Source of the DNA: an uncultured Thermoleophilia bacterium
Lineage (GTDB): Bacteria > Actinomycetota > Thermoleophilia > Gaiellales > Gaiellaceae
DNA: 32,000 nucleotides
NCBI GenBank assembly: GCA_963826485.1
Contig: CAWGXF010000010.1
Coordinates: 380,466 to 412,465 of the forward strand
Reading direction: 5' to 3'
The notes under the pieces are model-generated. The model did not search any database, had not been told where the DNA came from, and saw only the letters and a program-made list of their open reading frames with translations. Positions 1 through 21,461 of this stretch are shown one piece after another (within the stretch, counting starts at the first letter, position 1; every line of letters begins with the position of its first letter). The translations under genes were made by a program, and so were the position numbers.

Positions 1-1015
1 CGATCGTGCCGCCGGCCGCACGGTGCGGGTACGGCGGTTCGTGCGCCCGCGCGCCGATGCCGTGGCAGATCGGGTGCGTCGGCTGGGCCGGATAGCCGAG
101 CTCGGAGAGACCGTCGCGCACGAGCACGTCGAGCTCGGCCATGCTCGCGCCCGGCTCGCAGTGGTCGATCGCGCTGCGGTAGACGGCCAGCAGCCCCTGC
201 TCGAGCGCGCGATAGTCCTCACGGGGCTCGCCGACGCAGAGGAGCTTCGTGTGGTCGGCCCAGTAGCCGTCGGCGCAGACCCAGATCTCGAACAGGGTCG
301 GCTCGCCCTCGACGACCGGGAGCTCCCCCGTCGCCGTGAACGTCTTGATGCCGCGGCCGGCCCAGATCAGCGAGAAGCCGAACGCCAGCTCGACCTTGCC
401 GTCCCAGCCCGTGCCACGGCCGTGCACGAAGGCCTGCCAGAGCGCGGCGACCTCGCTCTCCTTCATCCCGGGCCTGATCAGGCCGCGGACGTGCTCGGTC
501 GCGGCCGCGCAGATCTCGTTCGCAAGGCGCAGCCGCTCGATTTCCTGCTGGGTCTTGATCGACCGTGCGGGCACGATCACCGACATCGCGTCCTGCGCGT
601 CCGGCCAGGCGTCGAACCAGGCCTTCGTGAAGGTCGTCGGCTCGCCGACCATCCGGTCGGTCGCCTGCGTGCCCATCGACAGCTCGAGCCCGACCCGCTC
701 GTAGCCCGCGGTCGCGGCCCGCGCGGCTTCGAGAGTGCGCGCGGGAACCGGCCGAGGATCGTCGGGCGCATAGCCCTGCACGAGCCGGACGTCCGCCGCC
801 CACGCCATCCGCTCGGCGTCCTCCTCGGAAGCCTCGAGGCAGATCAGCACCGGCTCACCTTCACGCGGGAAGACGCAGGCGTCGTAGCCCTTCATGCTCC
901 AGAAGTTCGTCAGATAGAGAACGTTGTCGGGCGCCCGCACGACGAGCGCGTCGAGCTCGCGCTCGGCCATCAGCGCGCGGACGCGGTCGAGCTTCGCGTC
1001 ATCGCGCGCCCACAT
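1..1015 (-). CDS. M24 family metallopeptidase (Xaa-Pro aminopeptidase / creatinase-like); partial, 3' end lies beyond the left edge
   Basis: Absent from the ORF track because it runs off the window. My own minus-strand translation from ATG at 1015 gives MWARDDAKLDRVRALMAERELDALVVRAPDNVLYLTNFWSMKGYDACVF... and later ...SIKTQQEIERLRLANEICAA...HPICHGIGARAHEPPYP, the pita-bread HGIG..HE.P signature. The ATG shares one nt with the FAH stop (TGATG). Confidence 0.8.
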   Translation of the reverse strand, partial: MWARDDAKLDRVRALMAERELDALVVRAPDNVLYLTNFWSMKGYDACVFPREGEPVLICLEASEEDAERMAWAADVRLVQGYAPDDPRPVPARTLEAARAATAGYERVGLELSMGTQATDRMVGEPTTFTKAWFDAWPDAQDAMSVIVPARSIKTQQEIERLRLANEICAAATEHVRGLIRPGMKESEVAALWQAFVHGRGTGWDGKVELAFGFSLIWAGRGIKTFTATGELPVVEGEPTLFEIWVCADGYWADHTKLLCVGEPREDYRALEQGLLAVYRSAIDHCEPGASMAELDVLVRDGLSELGYPAQPTHPICHGIGARAHEPPYPHRAAGGTI

Positions 1016-1905
1016 CAGTGGGCCTCGTCTCCCCACGGGCGGATCCGCGGAGGCGGAGGCTCGCCGTGGCCCTCCTGCCACGAGACGACGGGGTTGCGCA
1101 GGACGCCGATCCGCTCGATCTGCGCCTCGATCACGTCGCCCGGCCTCAGGTAGAGAAGCGCGCGCTCCTCCGGCGACTTGAAGCCCGCGACGCCGGAGAC
1201 CGTCCCCGTGGAGAGCACGTCGCCCGCCGAATAGCCGAGTGCCGAGAAGTTCGACAGGATCTCCGGGATCGTCACGCTCATGCGACTCGAGTGCGACTCC
1301 TGACGCGTCTCGCCGTTCACCCGCAGCTCCATCGCCAGGTCGTGTGGATCCGGGATCTCGTCGGCGGTGACGATCCAAGGGCCGAGCGGGCAGAACGTGT
1401 CGATCGCCTTGCAGAAGCTGAAGACACCCGATTTCATCTCGCCGCGCTGGATGTCGCGCGCCGTGATGTCGTTGAAGATCACGTAACCGGCGATGTAATC
1501 CACCGCCTCTTCGGGCGAGAACCACTTCCCCGCACGCTTGAGCACGACCGCCAGCTCGAGCTCGTAGTCGAGCTCCTCCGTGAGGTGCTCGGGATAGATG
1601 ATCGGCTCGTCCGGACCGATGATCGCGTCGACGTTCTGGAAGAAGTTGATCCACGGAGCGATCGCGTGCGCCCAGTCGACGTTCTTCGACTCCTCCTCGT
1701 GCTCACGGAAGTTGCCGGCGGTATGGAAGAACTTCTTCGGGACGATCGGAGCCTGCAGCCGCACGTCCGCGAACGCCGTCCGCTCCGCGGAGTCCTCGGC
1801 TCCGCCGCGCTCGAAGTAGTCGCGCATCGTCGGCACCTCGAGCCGAACGACCTCCTCCCCGTCGATCCGGCCGACCTTCCCGCCGTCGTAGGTGATCAGC
1901 CTCAT
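1015..1905 (-). CDS. Fumarylacetoacetate hydrolase (FAH) family protein
   Basis: Last 296 codons of track ORF 1015..2421. Start taken as ATG 1905 (MRLITYDGGKVGRIDGEE...), which forms an ATGA overlap with the M20 stop. The upstream 172 codons are Arg/Pro-rich shadow sequence overlapping the M20 gene. FAH-like segments: DYELELAVVL, GYVIFNDITARD, GDVLSTGTVSGV. Confidence 0.9.
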   Translation of the reverse strand: MRLITYDGGKVGRIDGEEVVRLEVPTMRDYFERGGAEDSAERTAFADVRLQAPIVPKKFFHTAGNFREHEEESKNVDWAHAIAPWINFFQNVDAIIGPDEPIIYPEHLTEELDYELELAVVLKRAGKWFSPEEAVDYIAGYVIFNDITARDIQRGEMKSGVFSFCKAIDTFCPLGPWIVTADEIPDPHDLAMELRVNGETRQESHSSRMSVTIPEILSNFSALGYSAGDVLSTGTVSGVAGFKSPEERALLYLRPGDVIEAQIERIGVLRNPVVSWQEGHGEPPPPRIRPWGDEAH

Positions 1906-3116
1906 CCGCAGATCCTCTGCGCGACGAGGGCATAGGTCTCGGCGGTCTTGACGAGGCCGTCGATGTCGAGGTTCTCGCCGAGCTCCACGTCCATCAGGCC
2001 GGTGGATGTCCCGTAGTTCAGCGTCGGGATCCCGTAGCGGGTCAGGGCGGAAGCGTCGCTGAACCAGCGCGTGACGTCTCGAGCGGGCACCTCGCCGAAG
2101 ACCTGTTCGTGGGCGGCGTCGACCGCCTGAACGAGCTCGTGCCCCTCCTCGATCTCGGCGCCGGGCGCGGTCACGTAGACCTCGCCCTCGATCCCGTAGT
2201 CGGGGAACCGGTCCGCGAGCGAGCGCACGAGCTCGAGCACCTCGCGGCGTGCGGTGCTCATCTCCTTGGTCGGCGGCACGCGCACGTCGAGGAAGAGGTC
2301 GGTGTGGTGCGGCGTGCGCGACACGCGCCAGCCGAAGCCGCCGCGCACGGCGCCGACGTTGACGATCGCCTGCGCCCCGCGGTAGGCGTTCGACGGATCG
2401 CTCTCCCAGGTGGGGATCCACTCGAGCACGGCCTGGGTCACCTCGTGCATGCGCAGGATCGAGTTCTCACCGCGCTTGCCCTCGCTGAACGCGGAGTGGA
2501 TGAAGTTGCCGTGCGTGCGGATGCGCAGCCAGAGCGTCCCGAAGTGCCCGAGCACGACCTTGCCTTCGGTCGGCTCGCCGAGCAGGCACATGTCGGCGAC
2601 GCCGCCGTGCGAGACCAGGTACCTGGTGCCGGCGGCATAGCCGCGGTACTGCGCGCCCTGCGCCTCCGCGTACTGGGTCTTCTCGATCTCCCCGCACACG
2701 GCGGCGATCAGCACGTCGCCGCGCAAGCGCACCCCGGCGTCCTGCAGCGATCGGACCGCCTCCACATAGCACGCGAGCGCGCCCTTCATGTTCGAGATCC
2801 CGAGCCCGTAGAGACGCCCGTTCTTCACGAACGCGCTGGGCTGGAACCCCGGCACGTTCTTCAACCACGGCTCGCGGCCGGAGTACGACGTGTCCATGTG
2901 CCCGTTGAACATCAGCGACTTGCCGCCACCCGTCCCGCGCCAGGTCCCAAGCGCGTTCGCGCGGCCTTCCTCGACCTGCTGCCATTGAATCTGCAGGCCC
3001 ATCCGCTCGAAGAGGGAGGCCATCAGCTCCGCCAGCCGCTGCTCGTCGCCGGTGAAGCTGTGCACGTCGATCAGCGCACTCGCCGTCTCGACGAGCCTGC
3101 TCTTGTTGATCCTCAA
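1902..3116 (-). CDS. M20 family metallopeptidase / amidohydrolase (ArgE/DapE/ACY1-like deacylase)
   Basis: 404-aa ORF. TTG start at 3116 is preceded by GGGGGAG with a 4-nt spacer. FNGHMDT metal motif, GLGISNMKGA and CGEIE segments at the positions of the canonical D-x-KG and DEE motifs, and a lid/dimerisation-length insert. Confidence 0.88.
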   Translation of the reverse strand: MRINKSRLVETASALIDVHSFTGDEQRLAELMASLFERMGLQIQWQQVEEGRANALGTWRGTGGGKSLMFNGHMDTSYSGREPWLKNVPGFQPSAFVKNGRLYGLGISNMKGALACYVEAVRSLQDAGVRLRGDVLIAAVCGEIEKTQYAEAQGAQYRGYAAGTRYLVSHGGVADMCLLGEPTEGKVVLGHFGTLWLRIRTHGNFIHSAFSEGKRGENSILRMHEVTQAVLEWIPTWESDPSNAYRGAQAIVNVGAVRGGFGWRVSRTPHHTDLFLDVRVPPTKEMSTARREVLELVRSLADRFPDYGIEGEVYVTAPGAEIEEGHELVQAVDAAHEQVFGEVPARDVTRWFSDASALTRYGIPTLNYGTSTGLMDVELGENLDIDGLVKTAETYALVAQRICG

Positions 3117-3140
3117 ACCGCTCCCCCACCGATCCGGACG

Positions 3141-3260
3141 TGCCGCGAAGGGCCACGTCGGGTGTCAGACACAGAAAAGAAACGGTGACGATTCATCCAC
3201 TGCCGCGAAGGGCCACGTCGGGTGTCAGACACAGACCAGAAACCGTGACGATTCATCCAC
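3141..3260. repeat. Two tandem copies of a 60-bp unit (3141-3200 and 3201-3260, 57/60 identical), each with a perfect 5-1-5 palindrome GTGTCAGACAC
   Basis: Direct reading. Copy 1: tgccgcgaagggccacgtcgggtgtcagacacagaaaagaaacggtgacgattcatccac. Copy 2 differs at 3 positions (aa to cc, g to c). Lies in the 160-bp gap between the LLM stop (3277) and the M20 start (3116). Confidence 0.95.
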
Positions 3261-3276
3261 AGCCGGCGGGGCACCG

Positions 3277-4311
3277 TCAGCTCCGGACGTGTGGAAGAAC
3301 GCGCTCTCCGAAGAGGCGGATCTGCTCGTGGCGGTCCGCGCCCCACAGCTCGAGCATCACATGGGTGCAGCCGGCGTCCTTGTACTCCTCGATGGCGGCG
3401 ATGCAGTCCGCCGGCGTGCCGGCGATCGGCTTGCACTTGTCGAGGATCGCGTCGGAGACGACCTCCTTCGCGGCCAGCCTGCCGCCGCGCTCCATCGCCT
3501 CGGCGACGGGCCGTATCTCGTCCTGCTCGAGGCCGGCGACGTCGAGCAGCGTGTCCGCGGCCCCCTGGATGTTCTGCACCTTGTTCGCCAGGTACATCCC
3601 GGCGATCTCACGCGCACCGTCACGCCCCTGGTCGCGGTCGGTGGCGTGGATCGAGGCGACGACCGTACAGCCGATGTCGATGTCCGCCTGGACGTTTTCG
3701 CGCGTATGGCGCACGAAGGCCGGAGTCGTGATCGACGGGGTCAGGCAGCCGTCGGCGATCTCGCCGGCGAGCGCCTGCATCTTCGGCGCGGTCGCGGCGA
3801 CATACACCGGCGGCACGCCGCGCGGCGTGTGCGCCTCCGGCCGCAACGCGGGGACGTCGGCGCTCCACGTATCGCCGTCGTACTCGAAGCGCTCGCCGCC
3901 GAGCACGCCGCGCACGATCTCGACGGCATCGCGCATCGGCCCGAGCGTCTTCCTGGTCTGCATCTTGGTGTTGTTGAGGAAGATCTTCGAGGTCCCGAAG
4001 CCAACGATGAACCGGCCCGGGCCCGCGGCCTCCTGCACGACCCGCGCGTCCATTGCGACCTGTACGGGATGCCGGGTCGAGGCGGCGATGATTCCCCAGC
4101 CGATCGTCAGCTGCTTCGTCTCGCGCGCCATCAACGCGGAGACGACGGTCGACGACCGCGCCTCCATGCCGTGCTTGCGCCACCACGGATACGCCTCGGC
4201 GAGCCAGATTGTGTCCATGCCCGCCTCGTCCATCGCACGCGCCGATGCCAGCATCTCGTCGAGCGGCTCCATGGTGAGCTGCATGACGCCGATCCGAAAC
4301 GGCACTGCCAT
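3277..4311 (-). CDS. LLM-class (luciferase-like) flavin/F420-dependent oxidoreductase
   Basis: 344 codons from ATG 4311 (MAVPFRIGVMQLTMEPLDEMLASARAMDEAGMDTIWLAEAYPWW...). The 137 upstream codons of track ORF 3277..4722 are shadow sequence overlapping coxG. Family-like segments: RFIVGFGTS, PPVYVAATAPKM, GCTHVMLEL. One-nt overlap (TGATG) with the coxG stop. Confidence 0.88.
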   Translation of the reverse strand: MAVPFRIGVMQLTMEPLDEMLASARAMDEAGMDTIWLAEAYPWWRKHGMEARSSTVVSALMARETKQLTIGWGIIAASTRHPVQVAMDARVVQEAAGPGRFIVGFGTSKIFLNNTKMQTRKTLGPMRDAVEIVRGVLGGERFEYDGDTWSADVPALRPEAHTPRGVPPVYVAATAPKMQALAGEIADGCLTPSITTPAFVRHTRENVQADIDIGCTVVASIHATDRDQGRDGAREIAGMYLANKVQNIQGAADTLLDVAGLEQDEIRPVAEAMERGGRLAAKEVVSDAILDKCKPIAGTPADCIAAIEEYKDAGCTHVMLELWGADRHEQIRLFGERVLPHVRS

Positions 4312-4769
4312 CAAGCAGCTCCGCCCGCGACCGCATCCTGCACCTGGCGGTCGAGTGCGGAGAGCACGTGCTCCACCTGCTGGTTGACGATCGGCTGAAG
4401 CACGCGTTGCCCCATCGAGCCGACCGGCCCTGCGATCTTCACATCGGCCGCCCACTTCATCGCCGTTCCCTCGTCGACGTCGTTCAGCTCGAACGAGGTG
4501 ATCATCGAAAGCATCGCCCCGACACCTTTGCCCTTGATGTTCAACTGGGCGTACTCGGGCTCGCGCTCCTCGGTCTTGTCCATGTCGATCTTCATCTTCA
4601 GACCGCCGAGCCCGAGCGGGATCTTCACGTTCGCGGTCCAGCGCTTTGCGTCGTGAATGTCGAAGCTCTCGACACCGGGCATCGTCTTCGCCATCGAAGC
4701 CGGATCGTTCAACACCCGCCAAACGGCCTGCCGCGGCGCCGCAAAGGTGCGCTCACCTGAAACGTTCAT
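4311..4769 (-). CDS. CoxG / SRPBCC family protein (carbon monoxide dehydrogenase subunit G-like)
   Basis: 152 codons from ATG 4769 (MNVSGERTFAAPRQAVWRVLNDPASMAKTMPGVESFDIHDAKRWTANVKIPLGLGGLKMK...). The rest of track ORF 4311..5060 is shadow sequence. Confidence 0.85.
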   Translation of the reverse strand: MNVSGERTFAAPRQAVWRVLNDPASMAKTMPGVESFDIHDAKRWTANVKIPLGLGGLKMKIDMDKTEEREPEYAQLNIKGKGVGAMLSMITSFELNDVDEGTAMKWAADVKIAGPVGSMGQRVLQPIVNQQVEHVLSALDRQVQDAVAGGAA

Positions 4770-4843
4770 ACCCGCTCCCGGTCCGGCAAAGCCGGCCCGT
4801 CGCTCTTTGCCGGCTCCGTCGAGCCTACGCCGGAAACGTTCAT
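4766..4843 (-). CDS. 25-codon relay mini-ORF (MNVSGVGSTEPAKSDGPALPDRERV) bridging coxL and coxG; translation unproven
   Basis: Its ATG (4843-4841) forms an ATGA overlap with the coxL stop, and its TGA (4768-4766) forms an ATGA overlap with the coxG ATG. The first five codons duplicate the coxG N-terminus. It corresponds to the last 25 codons of track ORF 4766..6796. Confidence 0.25.
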   Translation of the reverse strand: MNVSGVGSTEPAKSDGPALPDRERV

Positions 4844-7317: not shown

Positions 7318-7787
7318 TCGGACGCCGCCTTGACGGCCTCGACGATGTTCCAGTAGCCGGTGCAGCGGCAGATGTTCCCCTGCAGGCCCTTCTTGATCTC
7401 GCCTTCCGAGGGGTGCGGGCTCCGACGCAGGAGCGCCGTGGCGCTCATCAGCATCCCGGGGGTGCAGTAGCCGCACTGGAGCGCGTGGTTGTCCTTGAAC
7501 GCCTGTTGCAGCTTCGAGAGCTCGTCGCCGTCGGCGAGGCCCTCGACCGTCTCCACGGTGGCGCCGTCGGCCTGGACGGCGAGCATCATGCAGCTCTTCA
7601 CCAGCGAGCCGTCCACGATCACCGAGCACGCCCCACAGTTACCGGTGTCGCAGCCGATGTGGCTTCCGGTCAGGTCGAGGTCGTCGCGGATGAAATGGAT
7701 GAGGAGCTTCCGCGCTTCGACCTCGCGCTCGTAGACGGTGCCGTTGATCGTGACGGTGATCGACCTGGACGACGTGACGGTGCTCAA
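7314..7787 (-). CDS. (2Fe-2S)-binding small subunit of the Mo hydroxylase (CoxS-like)
   Basis: 157 aa. TTG start at 7787 has AGGAG 6 nt upstream and forms a TTGA overlap with the coxM stop. Cluster motifs GCDTGNCGAC, CGYCTPG and CRCTGY. Confidence 0.93.
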   Translation of the reverse strand: MSTVTSSRSITVTINGTVYEREVEARKLLIHFIRDDLDLTGSHIGCDTGNCGACSVIVDGSLVKSCMMLAVQADGATVETVEGLADGDELSKLQQAFKDNHALQCGYCTPGMLMSATALLRRSPHPSEGEIKKGLQGNICRCTGYWNIVEAVKAASE

Positions 7788-8587
7788 TCCCGGCTCCTGG
7801 CTTGGTTGACGGCGCGAACTGCGAGCACCTCGGCGAGGTGGGTGCGGTACTCGCTGGAGGAGTGGACGTCCGACGGCGGTTCGAGGCTCGCGCTGCGCAC
7901 GGCGTCGCGCACGGCTTCCTCCTCGGCGGAGGCCGGGTGCAGGACGACGGGCACCGCGTCGACGCAGCCGAGCGCAACGGTCACGCTGCCGTTCACCGAG
8001 GCGGCGGCGCTCGCTATGCAGGTCCCGTCGACGCCGAGCGTGACGGCGGCGAAGCCGTCGCCGCGGCCGGCCGGGACGGTGATCTTCGTCAGCACCTCGC
8101 CGGCGCCGACCGCCGTCAGGTAGACGCCCAGGAAGAACTCTGCTGCCGGCACCACCCGGTGGCCGTCCGAACCGGCGATCGTCATCTGCGCACCGAGTGC
8201 CGCAATCAGGGGCGGCAGGTGATTCGTCGGATCGCTCGTGCAGAGGTTCCCCCCGATCGTGCCGCGGTTTCGCACCTGCACGTCGGCGATCTGCGCACAG
8301 ACCTCGCCGACGATCGGCCGGGCGCGCGCCTCGCCGGATTCGACGAGCTGGGTGTAGGTCGTCATGGCTCCGATCTCGAGCGTTCCGTCCGCCCCGAGCT
8401 CGATTCCCCTCAGCTCCTCGATCGCGGCCAGGTCGATCAGGGCGTCCGGCGATCCCGCACGTGCCTTCATCACGTTGACCAGGGTCTGGCCGCCGGCGAG
8501 CACACGGGCGCCGTCGTCGGCCGCGAGCAGCTCGATCGCTTCCGCAAGCGATCCCGGCCGCGCATATCCGACCTCACGAAGAAGCAT
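7784..8587 (-). CDS. FAD-binding medium subunit of the Mo hydroxylase (CoxM-like, xanthine dehydrogenase family subunit M)
   Basis: 267 aa (MLLREVGYARPGSLAEAIELLAADDGARVLAGGQTLVNVMK...RNRGTIGGNL...). Typical PCMH-type FAD domain of CoxM/XdhB proteins. Confidence 0.92.
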   Translation of the reverse strand: MLLREVGYARPGSLAEAIELLAADDGARVLAGGQTLVNVMKARAGSPDALIDLAAIEELRGIELGADGTLEIGAMTTYTQLVESGEARARPIVGEVCAQIADVQVRNRGTIGGNLCTSDPTNHLPPLIAALGAQMTIAGSDGHRVVPAAEFFLGVYLTAVGAGEVLTKITVPAGRGDGFAAVTLGVDGTCIASAAASVNGSVTVALGCVDAVPVVLHPASAEEEAVRDAVRSASLEPPSDVHSSSEYRTHLAEVLAVRAVNQARSRD

Positions 8588-8648
8588 GCTCAGGTGTCTT
8601 ATAAAATGTCAGGCAGGGCCGGCGCAAGTCGGAACCGTACTCACAAGC

Positions 8649-8677
8649 GAATCTGATTCGCGCAGCGAACCAGATTC
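8649..8677 (-). promoter_or_regulatory. 13-3-13 inverted repeat GAATCTGATTCGC-gca-GCGAACCAGATTC; either an operator or a U-tract-poor terminator hairpin upstream of coxM
   Basis: Direct reading. The single mismatch becomes a G-U wobble only on the minus-strand (transcribed) RNA. It belongs to a family of five GAAYCNGRTTC-like 11-mers between 8649 and 8761. Confidence 0.4.
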
Positions 8678-8742
8678 ACGAGTCTCGAGCTGCCACGCCG
8701 TCGGAGAAAACGCGCGAACCTGGTTCCCGGCTTCGCCGGCAA

Positions 8743-9891
8743 TCAGGTTCGGATCAGATTGCGGTGGCGCTCGAGCGCCGCGAGGACCGTGTCGATGTCC
8801 TCCTCGGTGTTGTAGGCGTGCGCGGAGATCCGCAGGTTGCCGTCGCGCTCCGAGGTGACGATTCCGTCCTCCTGGAGGGCGGCGACGAGGTGCGGCGCAT
8901 CCGTCGAGCGGATGCAGACGAGCGCGCCGCGCTTCTCCGGGTCACGGGGGGTTACGACCACCCCGCCGAGCTCGTCGACACCGCCGATCAGTCGCTCGTT
9001 CAGCGCGGTCACATGGGCACGGGTCTCGCCGACGCCGATCTCCTCCATCAGCTCCAGGCCGGCGATGCCGGCATAGATCGAGGGAACCGGCGGCGTTCCC
9101 GACTGGAACCGCCGTGCAGTGGGCGAGGGCGAGTAGTCGTTGATGTCCATCTCGAAGATGTTCTGGTCGGCGAACCAGCCCGTCTGGGTCGGCAGAAGCC
9201 GTTCGCTGAGGCCGGGCTTCGTCCACATGAACGCGAGCCCCGCCGAACCGAGCAGGTACTTGAGCACACCGGCCGCGAGCACGTCGACCCCGAGCTCGGC
9301 CACGTCGAGCGGGTAGGTGCCGATCGCCTGATACGCGTCGAGCACGACGAGCGCCCCGCGCTCGCGGGCGATTTGTGCGATCTCCTCGACGGCGAGCCGC
9401 GAGCCGTTGCGGTAACAGACCGCAGCGATCGAGACGACTGCGGTCTGCTCGTCGATTGCCTCGTCGAACCGTTCCACGGGGATCTCCGCCCCGTCCGCAC
9501 GCACGTGCACGACCTCCGCGCCGCGCAGCTCCTGGGCGTGCCAGATCTGGCCGATCGTCGGGAACTCGAAATCGCTGATCACGACCTTCGGCCGGGCCGA
9601 GAAGTCGATCGCGCTTGCGAGCGGGCTCACCCCGGCCGAGAGCGATGTGGTGACGGCGACGTCATCTGCCGCGCCGCCGACGAAGCGCGCGAAGGTCGCG
9701 CGTGCGGTCTCGGCGCGCTCGACCCAGTACTCCCAGGGCGCCCCGTGCCGGTCCCAGCCCGTCAGATAGTCGCCGTACGCGGCGCGCACCGCATCCGACA
9801 GAGCACCCTGCGAGCACGAGTTGATGTAGGTGAGCCCCTCGAAGATCGGGAAGTGCGAGCGACACGCCGCGACACCGCCCTTAGCGTCCAA
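8743..9891 (-). CDS. Class V aminotransferase-fold PLP-dependent enzyme (kynureninase / cysteine desulfurase-like)
   Basis: Family-like sequence begins at ...DAKGGVAACRSHFPIFEGLTYINSCSQGALSDAV... with a PLP-lysine context AGVLKYLLGSAGLAF. There is no in-frame ATG or GTG nearby. Start proposed at TTG 9891 with GGAAGG 6 nt upstream, overlapping the livF end by 11 nt. The rest of track ORF 8743..10092 is shadow sequence. Confidence 0.8.
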   Translation of the reverse strand: MDAKGGVAACRSHFPIFEGLTYINSCSQGALSDAVRAAYGDYLTGWDRHGAPWEYWVERAETARATFARFVGGAADDVAVTTSLSAGVSPLASAIDFSARPKVVISDFEFPTIGQIWHAQELRGAEVVHVRADGAEIPVERFDEAIDEQTAVVSIAAVCYRNGSRLAVEEIAQIARERGALVVLDAYQAIGTYPLDVAELGVDVLAAGVLKYLLGSAGLAFMWTKPGLSERLLPTQTGWFADQNIFEMDINDYSPSPTARRFQSGTPPVPSIYAGIAGLELMEEIGVGETRAHVTALNERLIGGVDELGGVVVTPRDPEKRGALVCIRSTDAPHLVAALQEDGIVTSERDGNLRISAHAYNTEEDIDTVLAALERHRNLIRT

Positions 9892-10603
9892 GGTAGGCCT
9901 TCCGGAGGTTCTCGTCCTCCCGCAGCTCCGCGGCCTTCCCTTCGAGCACGAGGCGGCCGGTCGAGAGGACGTAGCCGCGGTCGGCGATCGAGAGCGAGAC
10001 ATTTGCGTTCTGCTCGACGACGAGGATCGCGACACCCGACTCGTGAACCTGCTTGATGATCTCGAAGTTCCGCTCGACGAGGATCGGCGCAAGCCCCATC
10101 GACGGCTCGTCCATCAGGAGCAGCTTCGGGCGCGACATCAACGCTCGTCCCATGGCGACCATCTGCTGTTCGCCGCCCGACAAGGTGCCTGCGAGCTGGG
10201 AGCGCCGGTCGCGAAGCAGCGGGAACAGCTCGTAGACGCGATCGAAGTCCTCCTTCGAGCCGCCGCCGCGCAGATACGCCCCCATCTCCAGGTTCTCCAG
10301 CACCGTCATCGGCCCGAAAAGCCGCCGGTTCTCCGGAACGATCGCGAGGCCGCGTGCGATGCGGTAGCTCGTCGGACGCTTCGTCACCTCCTCGCCGTCG
10401 ATGCGCACCGCGCCGTTGCGGGGGCGAACGATGCCGAGGATCGTCTTCAGCGTCGTCGACTTGCCCGAAGCGTTGCCGCCGAGCAGACAGACGAGCTCGC
10501 CCTGCTCGACCTTGATCGACAGCCCCTGCAGGATGTGAATCTGCCCGTAGTACGTGTCGACCGCATCGAGCTCGAGCAGACTGGGTGCAGCTGGAGCCGT
10601 CAT
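9881..10603 (-). CDS. livF: Branched-chain amino acid-type ABC transporter ATP-binding protein (LivF-like)
   Basis: 240 aa. Walker A GGNASGKST, signature LSGGEQQM, Walker B LLLMDEPS. ATGA overlap with the livG stop. Confidence 0.93.
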   Translation of the reverse strand: MTAPAAPSLLELDAVDTYYGQIHILQGLSIKVEQGELVCLLGGNASGKSTTLKTILGIVRPRNGAVRIDGEEVTKRPTSYRIARGLAIVPENRRLFGPMTVLENLEMGAYLRGGGSKEDFDRVYELFPLLRDRRSQLAGTLSGGEQQMVAMGRALMSRPKLLLMDEPSMGLAPILVERNFEIIKQVHESGVAILVVEQNANVSLSIADRGYVLSTGRLVLEGKAAELREDENLRKAYLGR

Positions 10604-11400
10604 TTGCGCTCCGTCGTCCCGAGCCCGAGATAGGCCTCGACGACGGCCCCGTTCGTCGCGACGGACTCATACGACCCTTCCGCGATCTTGATGCCGTGGT
10701 CGAGTGCGACGACGCGGTCGGAGATGCCCTCGACGACGTGCATGTCGTGCTCGATCACGAGGATCGTGTACCCACCGTCCTCGCGAAGCTTGGCGATCAG
10801 CTCCGTGATCTCGTGTGTCTCCTTCGGGTTCATCCCGGCGGCAGGCTCGTCGAGCAGCAGGATGCGCGGGTTGGTGGCGGTCGCGCGGGCGATCTCGAGG
10901 CGGCGGCGATTCGCGTACGAGAGCGAGTATGCGGGCTGGTCCCAGCGGTAGCCCATCAGGCGCTCCCCGAAGAAGGCGAGCCGGTCGTGAGCGAGCTGCT
11001 CGATCTCCCGCTCCTCCCGTCTCATGCCGGGGGTTCGCAGCATCGAACGAAGGACGCCCGCCCGCGTGTGACCGTAGGCGGCCGTCATCACGTTCTCCTT
11101 CACCGACATGTTGAGGAAGAGCCGCAGCGTCTGGAAGGTGCGCGAGATCCCGCGCCGGCTGATCTGATGGGGCTCGAGACCCACGATCGTCTTGCCGTCG
11201 AGCAGGATGTCGCCGGACTCGGGCCGGTAGATGCCCGTGATCAGGTTGAAGAGCGTCGTCTTTCCGGCGCCGTTCGGCCCGATCACGCTGACGATCTCGC
11301 CTTCGTCCACCCGGAGGTCGAGCTCGTCGACCACGCGCAACCCGCCGAACGACAGCGAGACCCCCTTCAGCTCCAGCGTCGAGCTTCCCGGAGAGCCCAC
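10600..11400 (-). CDS. livG: Branched-chain amino acid-type ABC transporter ATP-binding protein (LivG-like)
   Basis: C-terminal 266 codons of track ORF 10600..12789. GTG start at 11400 shares 1 nt with the livM stop (TAGTG). Walker A GPNGAGKTT, Walker B LLLDEPAAG, BCAA-type C-terminal tail. Confidence 0.9.
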   Translation of the reverse strand: MGSPGSSTLELKGVSLSFGGLRVVDELDLRVDEGEIVSVIGPNGAGKTTLFNLITGIYRPESGDILLDGKTIVGLEPHQISRRGISRTFQTLRLFLNMSVKENVMTAAYGHTRAGVLRSMLRTPGMRREEREIEQLAHDRLAFFGERLMGYRWDQPAYSLSYANRRRLEIARATATNPRILLLDEPAAGMNPKETHEITELIAKLREDGGYTILVIEHDMHVVEGISDRVVALDHGIKIAEGSYESVATNGAVVEAYLGLGTTERK

Positions 11401-12854
11401 TAGACGATCTCCACCCGGCGCTCGCCCAGGAGGCCGTTCGGGCGCACGATCATCAACGCGATCAGAATCAGGCCGAGCACGATGTAGCGCGCCGGCTCGG
11501 GCTTCGCCAGCATCACGTTCTCCCACACGAACGCCGCAAGATAGAGCGTCGGCACGAGCAGCACGAGACGCAGCCGACCGCGGACGAGAGTGAGGACCAG
11601 AGCCATCGCGATCAAGCCGATGTACGAGACGGGCGCCACCCAGCGGGCGAGATGCTCGGGCGCGACGACCCAATGGTTGACGTCGGACGCGAGCCCGCTG
11701 CCCTTCTCGCCCGCCACCCACGAGGAATCGATCGCTCGCGCGAGCTCGTGCACCGCGAAGCCGAAGACGATCATGGCAGCCATGACGTACGCGAGCGTCC
11801 GGCGCCTGAACGCGAACGCCAGACCGGCGACCAGCGCGACGAAGAAGATGATGCGCGACTTCCCGGGGTCGCGCAGCATCTCGAGCAGCGGGCTGATGAT
11901 CACGGCGCCCAGCACGACCCCGGCCTGGTTTCCCGCGCCGCCCAGGATGACCATCGTGTAGACGGTGATCAGCAGGACGAAATAGAAGGTGAGTGGGAAC
12001 ACGCTTGCGTTGAGCGCCGCGAACAGCGTCCCGGTCAGGGCGGCGACCGCCGCGCCGAATCCGAAGCTCATCAGCTTCAGCCAGTCGACCGGCATGCCCA
12101 TCGCCTCGGCCGCAAGCGAGTCCTCGCGCAGAGACCGCCAGGCGCGACCGGTGCGTGACACGTTGACGAAGCGGAGCGCCACGAAGACGACCGCGAAGAA
12201 CGCGAGGGCGACGTACAGGTACGACACGGCGAAGACGCCTTCGTGTGCGACCGCCAGCTTGTGCCCGAAGAGACTGAATGGATCGACGTTGAGGATGCCG
12301 TTCGGGCCGCCGGTCAGGTTGTGCCCGAACGCGTTGTCGCCGTTCGTCATCAGCGTCTGGAAGAGCTCCAGGAAGAACAGGGTGACGATCGCCAGGTAGT
12401 CGCCGGTGAGCCGTCGTGACGGCAGACCGAGGAGCAGGCCGAGGATCGCACCGATCCCGAGAGTGATCGGGACCGACACGAGTGAGGGGAAGTGCAGGCC
12501 GAACTTGTCGGAGTCGAGGATCGCGTAGGTGTAGGCACCGATCCCGTAGAACGCGACGAACCCGAGGTCGAGCAGGCCGCCCCAACCGACCACCACGTTG
12601 AGGCCGAGCGCCAGCAGCATGTAGAGCACCGTGTCGAACCCGACCCGGCGGACGTACCCGCTCGACGAGACCACCGGCAGCAGCGAGAACGCGGCGAGGA
12701 ACAGCACGAGCCACACCCACCAGGCAACCCGGCGCAGCCGCTCCTCCATGGCCCCGAACCGGCGCCGTTCTGCGTGGCGCGCAACCCACTCGTCCTGGCC
12801 GACTGCCGGGCCCTCGGCGGGTGTGTGCGAGTCGTGCGGCGTGGAGTCGCTCAC
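11400..12854 (-). CDS. livM: Branched-chain amino acid-type ABC transporter permease (LivM-like) with an extra block of about 130 aa of TM segments before the conserved C-terminal RPNGLLG motif
   Basis: 484 aa. GTG start at 12854 has GAGGAAG upstream. Hydrophobic multi-TM profile, GGAGNQAGVVLGA region, terminal MIVRPNGLLGERR. Confidence 0.88.
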   Translation of the reverse strand: MSDSTPHDSHTPAEGPAVGQDEWVARHAERRRFGAMEERLRRVAWWVWLVLFLAAFSLLPVVSSSGYVRRVGFDTVLYMLLALGLNVVVGWGGLLDLGFVAFYGIGAYTYAILDSDKFGLHFPSLVSVPITLGIGAILGLLLGLPSRRLTGDYLAIVTLFFLELFQTLMTNGDNAFGHNLTGGPNGILNVDPFSLFGHKLAVAHEGVFAVSYLYVALAFFAVVFVALRFVNVSRTGRAWRSLREDSLAAEAMGMPVDWLKLMSFGFGAAVAALTGTLFAALNASVFPLTFYFVLLITVYTMVILGGAGNQAGVVLGAVIISPLLEMLRDPGKSRIIFFVALVAGLAFAFRRRTLAYVMAAMIVFGFAVHELARAIDSSWVAGEKGSGLASDVNHWVVAPEHLARWVAPVSYIGLIAMALVLTLVRGRLRLVLLVPTLYLAAFVWENVMLAKPEPARYIVLGLILIALMIVRPNGLLGERRVEIV

Positions 12855-12864
12855 AGGCTCTTCC

Positions 12865-13788
12865 TCATACCTTCCGGATGTCGGCGCGCCCCAGGAGGCC
12901 CTGCGGGCGAAAGATCATGAACCCGATCAAGATGGAGAAGACGACCAGGTCGGACCACTTCGTCGAGATGTAGCCCTGCGTGTACGACTCCGCGAACCCG
13001 AGCATCAGGCCGCCCACCATGGCGCCCGGGATCGAGCCGATTCCCCCGATCACCGCCGCCGTGAAGCCCTTCAGCCCTGCGATGAAGCCGATCGACACCG
13101 TGGTCGGCACGCGCAACGCGAACAGGACACCGGCCGCACCGGCCAGCGCCGATCCGAGCACGAACGTGAACACGATCACCTTGTCGATGTCGATGCCCAT
13201 CATCGCGGCAGCCTCGCGATCGACAGAGGTCGCGCGCATCGCCTTGCCGGTGCGCGTGCGGTTGACGAGGAACCAGAGCACGATCATCAGGAAGAAGGCC
13301 GAGACGATCGTGATGATGCGCAGGAGTGGCAGGCGAACATCGCCGATGTCGATGCCCTTGAGGTAGAGCGCGCCGTTCGACAGGTCGAACGTGTCGTAGT
13401 TGCGCGGCGTCGCTCCGAAGAGGAGCTGCATCGAGTTCGCGAGGAAGAACGAGACGCCGAGCGCGCTGATCAGAGGCGCGATCCGCGGCGCGTCGCGGAG
13501 CGGCCGGTACGCGAATCGCTCGATGACGACGCCGAGCACTGCGCACCCCGCCATCGCAGCCAGAGTGACGAGGGTGAGGAGAAGCCAGACCGGCACCACA
13601 GGGCTCGAGACGCCGCCGAGCAGCTGCAGGCAGCCGTAGCCGATGAACGTGCCGACCATGAACACGTCGCCGTGGGCGAAGTTCAGGAGCTTCAGCACGC
13701 CGTAGACCAGCGTGTACCCGAGGGCGATCAGCGCATAGACGCTGCCCAGGGTGAGCGCGTCGATCGTGAGCTGGATGAACGTGTCCAT
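12865..13788 (-). CDS. livH: Branched-chain amino acid-type ABC transporter permease (LivH-like)
   Basis: 307 aa (MDTFIQLTIDALTLGSVYALIALGYTLVYGVLKLLNFAHGD...FRPQGLLG). Confidence 0.93.
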   Translation of the reverse strand: MDTFIQLTIDALTLGSVYALIALGYTLVYGVLKLLNFAHGDVFMVGTFIGYGCLQLLGGVSSPVVPVWLLLTLVTLAAMAGCAVLGVVIERFAYRPLRDAPRIAPLISALGVSFFLANSMQLLFGATPRNYDTFDLSNGALYLKGIDIGDVRLPLLRIITIVSAFFLMIVLWFLVNRTRTGKAMRATSVDREAAAMMGIDIDKVIVFTFVLGSALAGAAGVLFALRVPTTVSIGFIAGLKGFTAAVIGGIGSIPGAMVGGLMLGFAESYTQGYISTKWSDLVVFSILIGFMIFRPQGLLGRADIRKV

Positions 13789-13814
13789 GGGGGGTTGAGG
13801 ACGAGTTCTACAAC

Positions 13815-13853
13815 GATCAGGGGGCGGCCCGGAAATCGGGCCGCCCCCTGATC
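13815..13853 (-). terminator. Perfect 17-bp GC-rich hairpin (GATCAGGGGGCGGCCCG, 5-nt loop, CGGGCCGCCCCCTGATC) between the SBP and permease genes; attenuator or mRNA-stabilising element
   Basis: Direct reading. It lies 23 nt downstream of the SBP stop. No U-tract follows on the minus strand (GUUGUAGAAC). Confidence 0.5.
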
Positions 13854-13875
13854 ACGTGTCATTTGGGCTCGTCGG

Positions 13876-15060
13876 TTAGCTGACGAGTTTGTACGAGCCG
13901 TTCGACTGGATCTGGAAGATGTAGAACTTCGCGTTCAGCGGGTCGTTCGACTTCGTCGACCAGCGGAACTTCCCACCGAGGATCCAGTTGTTGATCTTGA
14001 CCTTCTTGACCGTGCGGAGCACGGCCAGGCGAGTCGTGGAACCGTGCCCTGCCTTGCAGGCCCGCGAGATCGCCGTGAGAGCGATCTGCGCCGCGCCGTA
14101 GCTCGGCGGCCCGAAGGAGCCGACGGACTTCCCGGGGTTGGCCTTCTTCCAGCCTGCGATCAGGGCGGCGTCCGCCTTGATGCCCGTGATGTCCGGCGCG
14201 AAGTTGGACACGTACGAGCCCGGCACCTTGAACTGCGACGAGTCGTTCGAGCCGTCACTGCCGAACACCTTCGCCTTCTTTCCCTGCTCCAGCAGCTGCT
14301 GGGCGAACGTCTGCGCGTCGCCCGGCTTCTGGGTCGGGAAGAAGACCACATCGGCATCGTTCGGGACCTTGGTCACGAACGCCGAGTAGTCGGTCGTCGT
14401 GTTCGACGCGGAGAGGCGGGTCGTGGAGACACCGGCCTTCTTGAGCGTCGCCTCCGCGGCATTCGCGAGACCAACGGAGTACGGCTCCTGGAAGTCCATG
14501 ATCACGACCTTCTTCGCCTTCAGGGTCTTGATCATGTAGTTCGCGTCCGTCGGGCCCTGGATGTAGTCGCCGGGGACGTCACGGAAGAATGCCGTCGTTC
14601 CTTCGAGCTGGCCGCCGACTCTCTTCGTCAGGTCCGTCTTGGTTGCGGACGGCGAGAGATGCGCGAGCTTCGCCGAGAAGTAGGCCTGCGTCGAGGCGAC
14701 CGCGGCGCCCGACGTCGCGGGCCCGAGCACCATGAGGACGCTCTTGTCGGCGATGTACTTCTGCGCCAGTGCCTGGGCAGGAGCGGGGCCCTGCTCGACC
14801 GGCGTGTCGCCGAAGACGAACTTGACCTTCAGACCGAGCTTCGGAGCGAGCGTCTTGACCGCATACGACGCCCAGCTGCCCTGCTCGGCGCCGAGGAAGC
14901 CGGCGCCTCCGGTGACCGGTGTGACGAGCGGCAGGGTGATGGTCTTCTTGCAGTTGAAGCTCGCGGTCGCCTTGACCGCGACCTTGTGGGCGCCCTGCGC
15001 GCTCGCGGCCACGACCGAGGTCATGAGAACCGCAAGGGCGAGGCCGATCGCCTTCTTCAT
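13876..15060 (-). CDS. ABC transporter substrate-binding protein, LivK/Peripla_BP_6 type, secreted
   Basis: 394 aa. N-terminal signal peptide MKKAIGLALAVLMTSVVAASA-QG. Strong SD AAGGAGGA upstream of ATG 15060. Confidence 0.9.
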   Translation of the reverse strand: MKKAIGLALAVLMTSVVAASAQGAHKVAVKATASFNCKKTITLPLVTPVTGGAGFLGAEQGSWASYAVKTLAPKLGLKVKFVFGDTPVEQGPAPAQALAQKYIADKSVLMVLGPATSGAAVASTQAYFSAKLAHLSPSATKTDLTKRVGGQLEGTTAFFRDVPGDYIQGPTDANYMIKTLKAKKVVIMDFQEPYSVGLANAAEATLKKAGVSTTRLSASNTTTDYSAFVTKVPNDADVVFFPTQKPGDAQTFAQQLLEQGKKAKVFGSDGSNDSSQFKVPGSYVSNFAPDITGIKADAALIAGWKKANPGKSVGSFGPPSYGAAQIALTAISRACKAGHGSTTRLAVLRTVKKVKINNWILGGKFRWSTKSNDPLNAKFYIFQIQSNGSYKLVS

Positions 15061-15122
15061 CTAGGTGTCCTCCTTCGTGGGGGCACGACGTTTTGGTCGC
15101 CGGGGTAGGCGCTGAAGCCGGG

Positions 15123-15151
15123 AGTGTTGTCCGTGACGCTCACGGTGTCAA
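15123..15151 (-). promoter_or_regulatory. Candidate promoter of the liv operon: -35 TTGACA (15151-15146), 17-nt spacer, -10 AACACT (15128-15123), with a 6-3-6 palindrome CCGTGAnnnTCACGG (15131-15145) in the spacer
   Basis: The minus strand reads CATTGACACCGTGAGCGTCACGGACAACACTCC. Pattern match only. It would give a 5' UTR of roughly 55 nt before the SD. Confidence 0.35.
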
Positions 15152-15292
15152 TGATCAAATCCTGAGCGCTGCGACCCGGCCCGTCGCATCGAGAGTATTG
15201 AACCCATCCACCATTCGACGCCGAACGGCTCGAAAATGTTGTGCGGCACTTCCGTCGGGGCGCCCGGGCCGGCACGTAGGTTTACGAACCAG

Positions 15293-21338: not shown

Positions 21339-21449
21339 GAGTCGACAGTCACCCTTGCAGGATCCACGCCCGCGACCATCGGTAGGCCCACCGAGCCGAC
21401 GGTGCGGCTTTGCCGCAGATGCTACGCCGCGCGGCTGCCCATCCACCAC

Positions 21450-21455
21450 TACCAT
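21450..21455 (+). promoter_or_regulatory. Candidate -10 box TACCAT (TANNNT) ending 6 nt before the MFS ATG; implies a leaderless mRNA
   Basis: Direct reading: TACCAT-cgagga-ATG(21462). Pattern match only. Confidence 0.3.
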
Positions 21456-21461
21456 CGAGGA

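Follow-up and report, generated by a model that had tools for sequence, protein, structure and literature searches.

What a long co-directional run of importer and enzyme genes in an uncultured bacterium breaks down, and whether such a run is one system at all, are the questions raised by a 32,000-nucleotide (nt) stretch of DNA from an uncultured Thermoleophilia bacterium of the family Gaiellaceae (assembly GCA_963826485.1, contig CAWGXF010000010.1, positions 380,466 to 412,465 of the forward strand; hereafter the window). Positions 1-15060 carry fourteen minus-strand genes, which a preliminary description of the DNA had read as a single uptake-plus-catabolism array with no assignable pathway. 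Judged by the comparison of related genomes, this uptake-plus-catabolism island is real, conserved and without a characterised counterpart. With moderate confidence, we interpret it as a conserved modular catabolic island of soil Gaiellaceae that would serve a single pathway for an imported, amino-acid-like nitrogen compound. Our best reading of the substrate, by analogy with related enzymes, is a beta-substituted alanine or an amino acid bearing an N-heterocycle.

Read from its upstream end, the array encodes a substrate-binding protein (SBP), LivH, LivM, LivG and LivF of an ABC importer, a class V pyridoxal 5'-phosphate (PLP) enzyme, the CoxM, CoxS and CoxL subunits of a molybdenum (Mo) hydroxylase, CoxG, a luciferase-like oxidoreductase (LLM), an M20 amidohydrolase, a fumarylacetoacetate hydrolase (FAH)-family enzyme and an M24 creatinase/prolidase-like hydrolase. 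Families were assigned with Pfam, functions were tested against NCBIfam equivalog cut-offs, and the nearest solved structures were also compared; every family, the gene order and the strand agreed with the preliminary description. The window has about 68% G+C, and its very strong third-position GC periodicity was used to fix the coding frames. Start codons were chosen from candidate lists and verified where identical database proteins exist, and the independent gene calls on a Joint Genome Institute (JGI) soil metagenome contig with the same sequence agree from SBP through livF. Eight of the 13 junctions are overlaps of 1-11 nt, which bears out the mostly overlapping stop and start codons noted earlier; one is a 10-nt spacer and the remaining four are gaps of 87, 155, 70 and 160 bp. 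The preliminary description had counted three gaps: the sizes of 87, 155 and 160 bp stood, as did the structured element reported in each, but the 70-bp gap between coxL and coxG makes a fourth. Likewise, the run of fourteen genes was found where it had been placed, but the conserved unit is wider at both ends. The left window edge cuts the M24 gene, and the array continues beyond it in relatives, from which the left flank was read. In line with the earlier statement that the window has no regulator gene, no helix-turn-helix or other DNA-binding regulator turned up among the open reading frames (ORFs) scanned, in a scan that was not exhaustive.

The case for a conserved unit comes from related loci. 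One genome per species was scanned with the closer alignment of the PLP enzyme (A2), which gave the best 80 loci, and their content was determined by tblastn of all window proteins against them. The complete array was present in all 13 loci that have full flanks and a PLP-enzyme identity of at least 72%, and in each of them the order was the same: OsmC and bicupin genes (divergent), SBP-livHMGF-PLP, CoxMSL-CoxG-LLM and M20-FAH-M24. This synteny excludes chance juxtaposition for this lineage, which had been named beforehand as one of two outcomes that would undo the preliminary description. The loci were labelled Gaiellales, Thermoleophilia or unclassified Actinomycetota metagenome-assembled genomes in 79 of 80 cases, the exception being a 1.6-kb contig binned as Chthoniobacterales. 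In soil metagenomes, both the PLP enzyme and the bicupin have close relatives by the thousand, and the named taxa are Gaiellaceae, Thermoleophilia or broader actinobacterial labels; for the PLP enzyme the number of related proteins at E <= 1e-20 is at least 7,764, and identity to it is 82% or higher throughout the best 120 listed.

Coordinates of the genes and sequence elements of the island in the window, from left to right.
Feature	Position	Strand	Evidence
M24 creatinase/prolidase-like hydrolase	..1015, cut by left window edge	-	Pfam Peptidase_M24 6.4e-23 and Creatinase_N
FAH-family enzyme, 296 amino acids (aa)	1015-1905	-	Pfam FAA_hydrolase 1.7e-64
M20 amidohydrolase, 404 aa, TTG start	1902-3116	-	Pfam Peptidase_M20 and M20_dimer
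2 x 60-bp tandem repeat, units 95% identical, inside the 160-bp LLM-M20 gap	3141-3260	-	Repeat search
LLM, luciferase-like oxidoreductase, F420/Mer type, 344 aa	3277-4311	-	Pfam Bac_luciferase 2.3e-45
CoxG (SRPBCC) accessory protein, 152 aa	4311-4769	-	Pfam COXG 3.5e-21
60-bp insert with 9-bp-arm hairpin, CoxL-CoxG gap	4756-4843	-	Flanked by 14-bp direct repeat ATGAACGTTTCNGG
CoxL, Mo-hydroxylase large subunit, 825 aa	4840-7317	-	Pfam Ald_Xan_dh_C, MoCoBD_1, MoCoBD_2
CoxS, [2Fe-2S] small subunit, 157 aa	7314-7787	-	Pfam Fer2_2 5.9e-33 and Fer2
CoxM, FAD-binding medium subunit, 267 aa	7784-8587	-	Pfam FAD_binding_5 2.2e-48 and CO_deh_flav_C
Promoter-like element TTGCGC, 18 nt, TATAAG, within box TGACATTTTATAAGA	8597-8627	-	Locus comparison
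Four palindromic GAAYCWGRTTC boxes and 13-15-bp inverted repeat, PLP-coxM gap	8649-8750	-	Fold z = -2.7
Class V PLP enzyme, kynureninase-like, 382 aa, TTG start	8743-9891	-	Pfam Aminotran_5 1e-39 and KYNU_C
livF	9881-10603	-	Pfam ABC_tran
livG	10600-11400	-	Pfam ABC_tran
livM, 484 aa	11400-12854	-	Pfam BPD_transp_2
livH	12865-13788	-	Pfam BPD_transp_2
Perfect hairpin, 17-bp stem, 5-nt loop, SBP-livH gap	13815-13853	-	Fold -50.5 kcal/mol, z = -7.7
SBP, 394 aa, signal peptide, strong Shine-Dalgarno	13876-15060	-	Pfam Peripla_BP_6 3e-24
Bicupin, 222 aa, divergent	15293-15961	+	Pfam Cupin_2 twice; start verified by P0290
OsmC-family peroxiredoxin	15964-16404	+	NCBIfam TIGR03562 115.7 bits vs cut-off 85.8

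More distant Gaiellales retain a core, often the bicupin gene (there co-directional) followed by SBP-livHMGF-PLP, and in them the Mo-hydroxylase block and the LLM-M20-FAH-M24 block are absent, displaced or inverted. Thus, in locus L032 the array order is kept with an XdhC gene inserted before coxM (about 11140-12200), in L038 and L063 an inverted M24-FAH-M20-LLM block adjoins the PLP gene and the transporter is missing, in L044, L051 and L056 an inverted CoxLSM block adjoins the bicupin gene, and L047 has its Cox block inverted and placed after the PLP gene. The LLM gene bridges two of the blocks: in 15 of 20 loci its distance to CoxG is -5 to +20 bp, and in 10 of 19 its distance to M20 is -7 to +5 bp. 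Because the blocks separate, invert and re-associate, the arrangement across genomes indicates that the array is a set of three modules held together by selection and not one indivisible operon. The earlier view of an uptake-plus-catabolism array was therefore right as to its conservation, but not as to a fixed single 14-gene unit. We propose that module A comprises the bicupin, SBP, livHMGF and PLP genes, that module B comprises CoxM/S/L, CoxG and the LLM, which would be translationally coupled to CoxG, with a promoter of its own before coxM, and that module C comprises M20, FAH and M24, joined in relatives by a LeuA-like enzyme and a flavin adenine dinucleotide (FAD)-dependent oxidoreductase.

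The gaps between the genes contain elements that may regulate these modules. The hairpin between SBP and livH is not followed by a T-tract, and it therefore probably serves to set the ratio of SBP to permease, as a stabiliser of the mRNA or as an attenuator; such a hairpin is the usual device for yielding more binding protein than permease. The motif GAAYCWGRTTC has five matches in the window, four of them in the PLP-coxM gap, and a count of five was reached in none of 100 shuffles. Similar AACCWGGTTC boxes occur in L002, L005, L014 and L077, and the palindromic boxes in the PLP-coxM gap are probably operator sites. A scan of the window for consensus promoters and terminators gave nothing useful, and the box before coxM was found by locus comparison only. 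It is an AT-rich 13-nt sequence, ACATTTTATAARA, of which the window has one copy only and each of 20 related loci has exactly one as well; in the 18 loci whose gap was compared it lies a few bases before coxM, and the flanking intergenic sequence is not conserved. Its -35/-10-like pair predicts a promoter-like internal start before coxM. As the element ends 10 nt before the coxM ATG and no Shine-Dalgarno sequence is present, the coxM transcript is probably leaderless or nearly so.

In the LLM-M20 gap, each 60-bp unit of the tandem repeat holds the palindrome GTGTCAGACAC. The fold energy of the repeat was no better than that of shuffled sequences (z = +0.5 to +0.9), so that a reading as RNA structure was rejected and the palindromes were taken as protein-binding sites, probably an operator pair. 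The same palindrome is found just after the PLP stop codon, before the coxM promoter, in L004, L006, L010 and L025. This gap is an insertion hot spot: it measures -7 to +5 bp in ten loci and holds a rhodanese gene (128 aa, between LLM and M20) in four, namely L007, L009, L010 and L025. The fourth gap arose when a 60-bp insert, with hairpin arms CCGGCAAAG...CTTTGCCGG, broke an ancestral overlap of the CoxL stop with the CoxG start. The junction is an estimated 4-nt overlap in 18 of 20 related loci, and the five relatives examined have a contiguous ATGA/GTGA/TTGA-type stop-start overlap. The flanking 14-bp repeat is a copy of the CoxG start, and the insert, which leaves a 25-codon ORF in another frame beginning with the same MNVSG, occurs nowhere else in the window and in none of the 90 loci; it is a lineage-specific accident. 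A search of the whole window against Rfam at E <= 1 returned a chance miRNA match only, and thus the gap elements are not known RNA families.

These observations bear on the strongest of the alternatives, namely that three functionally independent operons are neighbours by chance in one Gaiellaceae clade: an importer with its PLP enzyme and bicupin, a general Mo aldehyde or "CoxL-like" dehydrogenase with an F420 enzyme, and a group of peptidase-type hydrolases with the LeuA-like enzyme. The core module stands alone in most loci at PLP identities of 60-68%, the cis-elements before SBP, coxM and M20 differ from one another, the gaps of 155 and 160 bp vary and can accommodate insertions, and the best NCBIfam match of the Mo enzyme is an aldehyde dehydrogenase model. 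However, the modules re-associate in varied orders and orientations (L032, L038, L044, L047, L051, L056, L063), which is unlikely to happen by chance; in L038 and L063 it is module C, and not the transporter, that accompanies the PLP gene, and the LLM gene directly adjoins module B in some genomes but module C in others. Moreover, the palindrome GTGTCnGACAC precedes coxM in some genomes and M20 in the window, which suggests a shared regulator. We therefore regard three unrelated operons as a serious alternative, but an unlikely one.

The uptake system has the parts of a HAAT/LIV-type ABC importer in one unit: two ABC ATPases and two BPD_transp_2 permeases are encoded together with an SBP of the Peripla_BP_6 family. 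Among solved structures, this SBP is related to Leu/Ile/Val- and amino-acid-binding proteins (2.5e-17), and the exact protein is present on a JGI soil contig. LivM has a hydrophobic C-terminal extension of about 140 aa (343-484), the NCBIfam LivM model covering residues 34-342 only. Very close relatives differ in the front end of the transporter (L003, L012, L013, L021 and L022 versus L002 and L006): livF is about 94% identical and the enzymes are 90-95% identical between the two types, whereas SBP is 33-40%, livH about 60% and livM about 47% identical, and SBP-livH-livM have thus been exchanged as a cassette. In eight loci, an M55 D-aminopeptidase is encoded upstream of the transporter block, at a distance of a few genes.

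After the PLP enzyme, the most faithful neighbour of the transporter is the bicupin, which adjoins the SBP gene in all close loci and lies co-directionally upstream of it in many distant ones, and which forms part of the conserved unit. A metal motif, HxH...E...H, could be read from its sequence in the C-terminal barrel only. The AlphaFold2 model (predicted local distance difference test score 91) matched small bicupins, i.e. quercetinase, the YlbA/DR1152 family and BacB/AerE, at 12-19% identity. The OsmC gene is kept beside the bicupin gene at PLP identities of at least 72%, and the two are co-transcribed in close relatives. In the divergent intergenic region between SBP and bicupin (15061-15292), a palindrome CCGTGA-GCG-TCACGG lies beside a TTGACA-like hexamer, and the fifth GAAYCWGRTTC box, an imperfect one, lies over the bicupin start at 15286-15296. 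A protein with MOSC_N and MOSC domains is encoded directly upstream of the bicupin gene in L036 (3042-3806), and a MOSC gene occupies that place in L046 as well.

At the other end of the array, the nearest solved relative of the M20 enzyme is 5-nitroanthranilate aminohydrolase NaaA (5k8m; 5.4e-50 over the full length), followed by DapE/ArgE at 1e-17, and the protein remained below the cut-off of the ArgE/DapE NCBIfam model; by overall similarity it is thus closest to a NaaA-type hydrolytic aromatic deaminase. A tblastn search with M20 against plasmids gave one match of 30% identity, on an unannotated Microvirga plasmid with no other array homologue near. The FAH gene overlaps those of M20 and M24 by 4 nt and 1 nt, respectively. 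Its product is nearest to HpaG/HpcE-type decarboxylase-isomerases and acylpyruvate-type hydrolases, with 5-oxopent-3-ene-1,2,5-tricarboxylate decarboxylase (6iym; 4.7e-40), diketo-deoxyrhamnonate hydrolase (8gsr) and maleylpyruvate hydrolase (6jvv) as solved relatives. The first 338 codons of M24 lie in the window, and the full length on L089 is 384 aa. Prolidase (5cdl; 1.4e-18) and the ectoine hydrolase DoeA (6twk; 1.4e-15) are its nearest solved relatives, but the full-length protein scored far below the DoeA/EutD models (TIGR02993 and NF038259, 67.2 vs 613 and 50.8 vs 575 bits). In relatives M24 is followed, with an overlap, by a 382-aa LeuA/homocitrate-synthase-like HMGL-domain enzyme that lacks the regulatory domain and then by the FAD-dependent oxidoreductase.

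The families of the Mo enzyme, M20, the bicupin, the class V PLP enzyme and FAH each have a member in purine breakdown, and the array could be a diverged purine/ureide pathway or a variant of reductive uric acid catabolism. The Mo enzyme would then be a xanthine dehydrogenase, M20 an allantoate-type amidohydrolase, the bicupin an ureidoglycine aminohydrolase, the class V PLP enzyme an ureidoglycine aminotransferase and FAH an ureidoglycolate lyase. The bicupin fold does match YlbA and DR1152 of the ureidoglycine aminohydrolase family (TM score about 0.7) and the protein has weak NCBIfam matches to that enzyme (5e-8), M20 matches the YgeY model at 2.3e-27, and the replacement of the reductase by LLM proteins has been reported for Chloroflexota (PMC12507026). 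However, none of the specific models reached its cut-off: the scores were 283 vs 780 bits for XdhA, 255 vs 784 for PucD, 95.9 vs 321 for YgeY, and 32.4 vs 445 and 29.3 vs 200 for the (S)-ureidoglycine aminohydrolase models NF008373 and TIGR03214. The likeness of the bicupin to ureidoglycine aminohydrolases is at the level of the fold only (1rc6, 1sfn; 15% identity), no allantoate-amidohydrolase model was among the best 25 of the 30 families matching M20, and the transporter is of the amino-acid type and not a nucleobase permease. In addition, the window has neither the marker amidohydrolases SsnA and HyuA (Amidohydro_1) nor YgeX, a lyase of fold type II, and none of the three was seen beside the array in related loci. 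A purine or ureide pathway is thus improbable.

The PLP enzyme is the constant partner of the importer. Its start was verified by a 100%-identical 382-aa protein (P0001), its gene overlaps the livF stop by 11 nt, and of the 67 loci that extend 1 kb or more upstream of the PLP gene, 63 showed a livF homologue, in most cases within about 100 bp. The nearest solved relative is Pseudomonas fluorescens kynureninase (1qz9; 5.5e-27, residues 1-352); the two proteins align at the KYL-G lysine motif and at the pyridine-nitrogen-binding Asp. Nevertheless, the protein is not a kynureninase by the tests applied, as it scored 82.3 bits against a TIGR01814 cut-off of 246.4 and does not keep the Tyr-Lys pair. 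The family is large (1,050 clusters at 50% identity, E <= 1e-30), and its contexts beyond Gaiellales/Thermoleophilia were taken from single look-ups of homologues. At 40-57% identity, e.g. in Gemmatimonadaceae and Pseudonocardiaceae, these usually adjoin SNF, AA_permease, MFS or SBP_bac_5 transporters, and one homologue adjoins a TonB-type receptor and an M61 peptidase. The amino-acid-type transporters beside the homologues point to a catabolic enzyme that acts on an imported amino acid, and together with the LIV-type SBP they fit an imported compound that is probably amino-acid-like. The class V branch that includes kynureninase, cysteine sulfinate desulfinase and selenocysteine lyase removes beta-substituents, and this analogy suggests that the PLP enzyme does the same. 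Cyclase (PF04199), split thiamine pyrophosphate (TPP)-enzyme, Cupin_2 or ornithine-cyclodeaminase genes are often near distant PLP homologues. In L082, L086 and a JGI contig, family members lie beside a Cyclase (PF04199), a TPP-dependent enzyme with its N and C halves separate, and a small Cupin_2 protein; here the PLP family forms the centre of another uncharacterised gene set. The PF04199 family includes bacterial kynurenine formamidase.

Could the class V protein instead be a cysteine desulfurase that gives the Mo enzyme its sulfido ligand, as MOCOS-like proteins do, and have no catabolic role? Its gene adjoins CoxMSL, SufS/NifS-type proteins match it at 1e-17 to 1e-32, and the MOSC-domain gene lies immediately upstream of the bicupin in L036 and L046 and the rhodanese gene in the array of four loci. 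However, the lysine motif is of the kynureninase type (KYL-G, within VLKYLLG) and not SGHK, and the SufS model gave 112 bits against a cut-off of 475. Alignments A1 and A2 of the PLP enzyme contain no invariant or near-invariant Cys in the C-terminal third; none is conserved at the persulfide-loop position, and C326 is conserved in neither alignment. Moreover, it is livF that accompanies the gene, the Cox genes are often absent nearby, and homologues elsewhere pair with amino-acid permeases. These results make a desulfurase very unlikely.

The CoxM, CoxS and CoxL proteins form a three-subunit Mo hydroxylase of the xanthine dehydrogenase family (CoxMSL/Qor type): all Pfam domains were above cut-off and the glutamate of the GMGEGG motif is present. 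Two solved enzymes are almost equally close to CoxL, Mycobacterium smegmatis CO dehydrogenase (8uem; 3.6e-125) and quinoline 2-oxidoreductase (1t3q; 1.7e-119). In the active-site loop VSPNRGYSRMQ, the segment NRGYSRMQ aligns to AY(R/A)CSFR of CO dehydrogenases but has no Cu-binding Cys, and the loop lacks the 2-residue insert of 8uem and 1ffu, its length being that of quinoline oxidoreductase, Kdh and the Sulfolobus enzyme. Because of these two features, the predicted enzyme is not a CO dehydrogenase. Hence the proposal that CoxMSL-CoxG is an aerobic CO dehydrogenase scavenging trace gas beside a [NiFe] hydrogenase, with the other genes as unrelated neighbours, is scarcely tenable in spite of the three-subunit layout with CoxG, the closeness of the M. 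smegmatis enzyme and the hydrogenase operon at about 16.4-21.6 kb, given the loop, a TIGR02416 score of 438 bits against a cut-off of 991 and a match to quinoline 2-oxidoreductase that is almost as good.

The LLM gene starts with a 1-nt overlap with the CoxG stop. F420-dependent classes account for 15 of the 16 best NCBIfam matches of its product, all below cut-off (Mer 109.9 and TIGR04024 93.9 bits), and the nearest solved relative is Mer (8qq8; 4.8e-19); the enzyme may use F420. In L017 (6638-7846), a 389-aa enzyme whose C-terminal part matches dimethylargininase/arginine deiminase models is encoded between CoxG and LLM. A gene for XdhC, the chaperone for Mo-cofactor insertion, is present in the window as two overlapping minus-strand ORFs (30390-31169 and 31130-31633), one with the XdhC_CoxI domain and the other with the XdhC_C Rossmann domain, about 15 kb from the Mo enzyme; it could be a natural split or a frameshift.

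Beyond the OsmC gene, the window contains a minus-strand [NiFe] hydrogenase operon (16415-21590) that encodes the HycI protease, the large and small subunits, an FAD/NAD subunit with a DHODB Fe-S domain, a Fer4_22 protein and a 157-aa protein consisting solely of a cyclic-nucleotide-binding domain, and whose layout resembles group 3b. A homologue of the large-subunit gene is also adjacent in L001, L003 and L006. The genes at 22869-29240 are seemingly unrelated neighbours: a SulP-STAS anion transporter, aldose 1-epimerase, a xylose-isomerase-like TIM-barrel protein and a GlcD/GlcE/GlcF-like FAD/Fe-S oxidase set.

For the single pathway that we favour, we infer the following order of steps, together with the direction of the Mo reaction, the use of F420 and the nature of the substrate. 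The LIV-type importer would bring the compound in, and the PLP enzyme, translationally coupled to the importer, would split a beta-substituted alanine into alanine or pyruvate and the side-chain moiety; the single-metal bicupin may work on the same substrate as a dioxygenase, isomerase or aminohydrolase. The Mo enzyme could then hydroxylate or dehydroxylate the carbon adjoining the ring nitrogen, and the F420-type LLM would reduce the ring. M24, which is DoeA/creatinase-like, and M20 may open the ring hydrolytically and deacylate or deaminate the product; ring opening by M24 is proposed because ectoine hydrolase is among its nearest solved relatives. Finally, FAH would cleave or decarboxylate the resulting dicarbonyl acid to central metabolites, with help from the LeuA-like enzyme in relatives. 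Counted in favour of this pathway is the XdhC maturation gene, which is in the window and stands directly before coxM in L032. Amino-acid-like uptake also fits the preliminary suggestion of a nitrogen-containing ring compound or an unusual amino-acid derivative as substrate, whereas the N-heterocycle in that suggestion was drawn from the enzyme families.

Several results weigh against a single pathway of this kind. No enzyme of the array reached an NCBIfam equivalog cut-off, and none of them names the substrate. The PLP enzyme has Leu at the position of the catalytic Tyr226 of kynureninase (LKYLL vs YKYLN), and the fold matches of the bicupin are generic. The best NCBIfam model of the Mo enzyme is archaeal glyceraldehyde dehydrogenase, below cut-off, and thus the enzyme may oxidise an aldehyde and not a heterocycle; on these matches it could equally be an aldehyde oxidoreductase. 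Among the 19 complete loci at PLP identities of 59-68%, Cox genes lie within 10 kb in three and the LLM-M20-FAH-M24 block is present in three, which implies that the core can work without both nearby. At the same time, the separate promoter and operator elements allow independent regulation of the modules.

A more specific form of the proposed pathway, which we put forward tentatively and consider unlikely as it stands, is a previously undescribed, largely oxygen-independent route of soil Gaiellales for a heterocycle-bearing or otherwise beta-substituted alanine. Candidates would be, for example, a non-protein amino acid of plant or microbial origin or a compound resembling kynurenine or albizziin. 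Here a new kynureninase-like PLP subfamily would be coupled to amino-acid importers, the Mo hydroxylase and the F420-dependent LLM would dearomatise the ring, and M24 and M20 would replace the usual cyclic amidohydrolases.

Among soil actinobacteria, Gaiellales rank with the most abundant groups and with those least brought into culture. In uncultured actinobacteria, catabolic clusters of uncharacterised function are common; the importance of this one is raised somewhat by how abundant the lineage is, by its new PLP subfamily and by the pairing of the Mo enzyme with an LLM. Naming its substrate would give a function to widespread "hypothetical catabolism" genes and define a new specificity in the kynureninase/SufS branch of class V PLP enzymes. 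It would also test whether a Mo enzyme and an F420-type LLM are a general means of dearomatising N-heterocycles, so far suggested from Chloroflexota gene neighbourhoods only. In addition, CoxL genes such as this one should not be counted as markers of CO oxidation in soil surveys.

The markers tested for nicotinate, purine/ureide, ectoine and kynurenine catabolism all fail, in line with the earlier statement that the array matches none of these gene sets, and literature searches, including those for an F420 and Mo-hydroxylase pathway and for a kynureninase-like and cupin operon, returned no matching gene set. Of the known systems, the reductive uric acid route uses a xanthine dehydrogenase homologue, a reductase, two amidohydrolases, an M20 enzyme and a PLP lyase and proceeds via albizziin (PMC12507026). 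Its cluster in Escherichia coli and Clostridioides difficile comprises XdhD-YgfM, YgfK/UacX, SsnA, HyuA, YgeW/UacY, YgeY as well as YgeX, the SsnA-type amidohydrolase being its marker, and uricolytic clusters of Chloroflexota have luciferase-family proteins in place of the reductase (PMC12507026). The proposed route is alike in that a Mo enzyme acts first, a reductase dearomatises, hydrolases open the ring, and M20 and PLP enzymes finish on a beta-substituted alanine (albizziin/diaminopropionate), and the Mo-enzyme and LLM pairing of the array matches the Chloroflexota clusters. However, the array lacks SsnA, HyuA, the carbamoyltransferase and YgeX and has M24 and FAH instead, its PLP enzyme is of class V, its transporter is LIV-type, and its M20 falls below the YgeY cut-off as given above. 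The array as a reductive uric acid cluster was rejected: no Amidohydro_1 or PALP protein is present in the window, none was seen beside the array in relatives, and YgeY fails.

The kynureninase (KynU) step resembles the array in that KynU is the nearest solved relative of the PLP enzyme and yields alanine from a beta-substituted alanine, and some distant PLP homologues adjoin genes of the Cyclase family. The array, in contrast, has no tryptophan dioxygenase or formamidase gene, and Leu replaces Tyr in its PLP enzyme. Ectoine/hydroxyectoine catabolism (DoeA/EutD, DoeB/EutE, DoeD, DoeC, EutABC) shares with it an M24 enzyme that opens a cyclic amidine, a deacylase next, a PLP enzyme and oxidation to an acid; the bicupin has weak matches to ectoine synthase, and ornithine-cyclodeaminase-like genes lie near the PLP gene in some loci. 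However, homologues of the DoeB, DoeC and DoeD types are missing from the array, and FAH, LLM and the Mo enzyme play no role in ectoine catabolism. With the riboflavin/lumichrome cluster, the array has generic families only in common.

The 5-nitroanthranilate pathway of Bradyrhizobium JS329 (NaaA, NaaB, NaaC) ends with an FAH-type hydrolysis, and NaaA is by far the nearest solved relative of M20. Nevertheless, M20 is the sole related protein, and the pathway has no counterpart of the Mo enzyme, LLM, M24, the PLP enzyme or the transporter of the array. Rhizobial mimosine catabolism proceeds by ABC uptake, a PLP C-N lyase, and then cleavage of the pyridone ring and hydrolysis. Its lyase, unlike the PLP enzyme of the array, is of class I/II, and neither a Mo enzyme nor an LLM takes part. 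At the same time, the two routes share a concept: import of a beta-substituted alanine that bears a heterocycle, its cleavage by a PLP lyase and degradation of the N-heterocycle set free. As for ring cleavage, the 5-nitroanthranilate pathway uses a cupin dioxygenase (PMC10306065), and the bicupin of the array has no specific similarity to NaaB.

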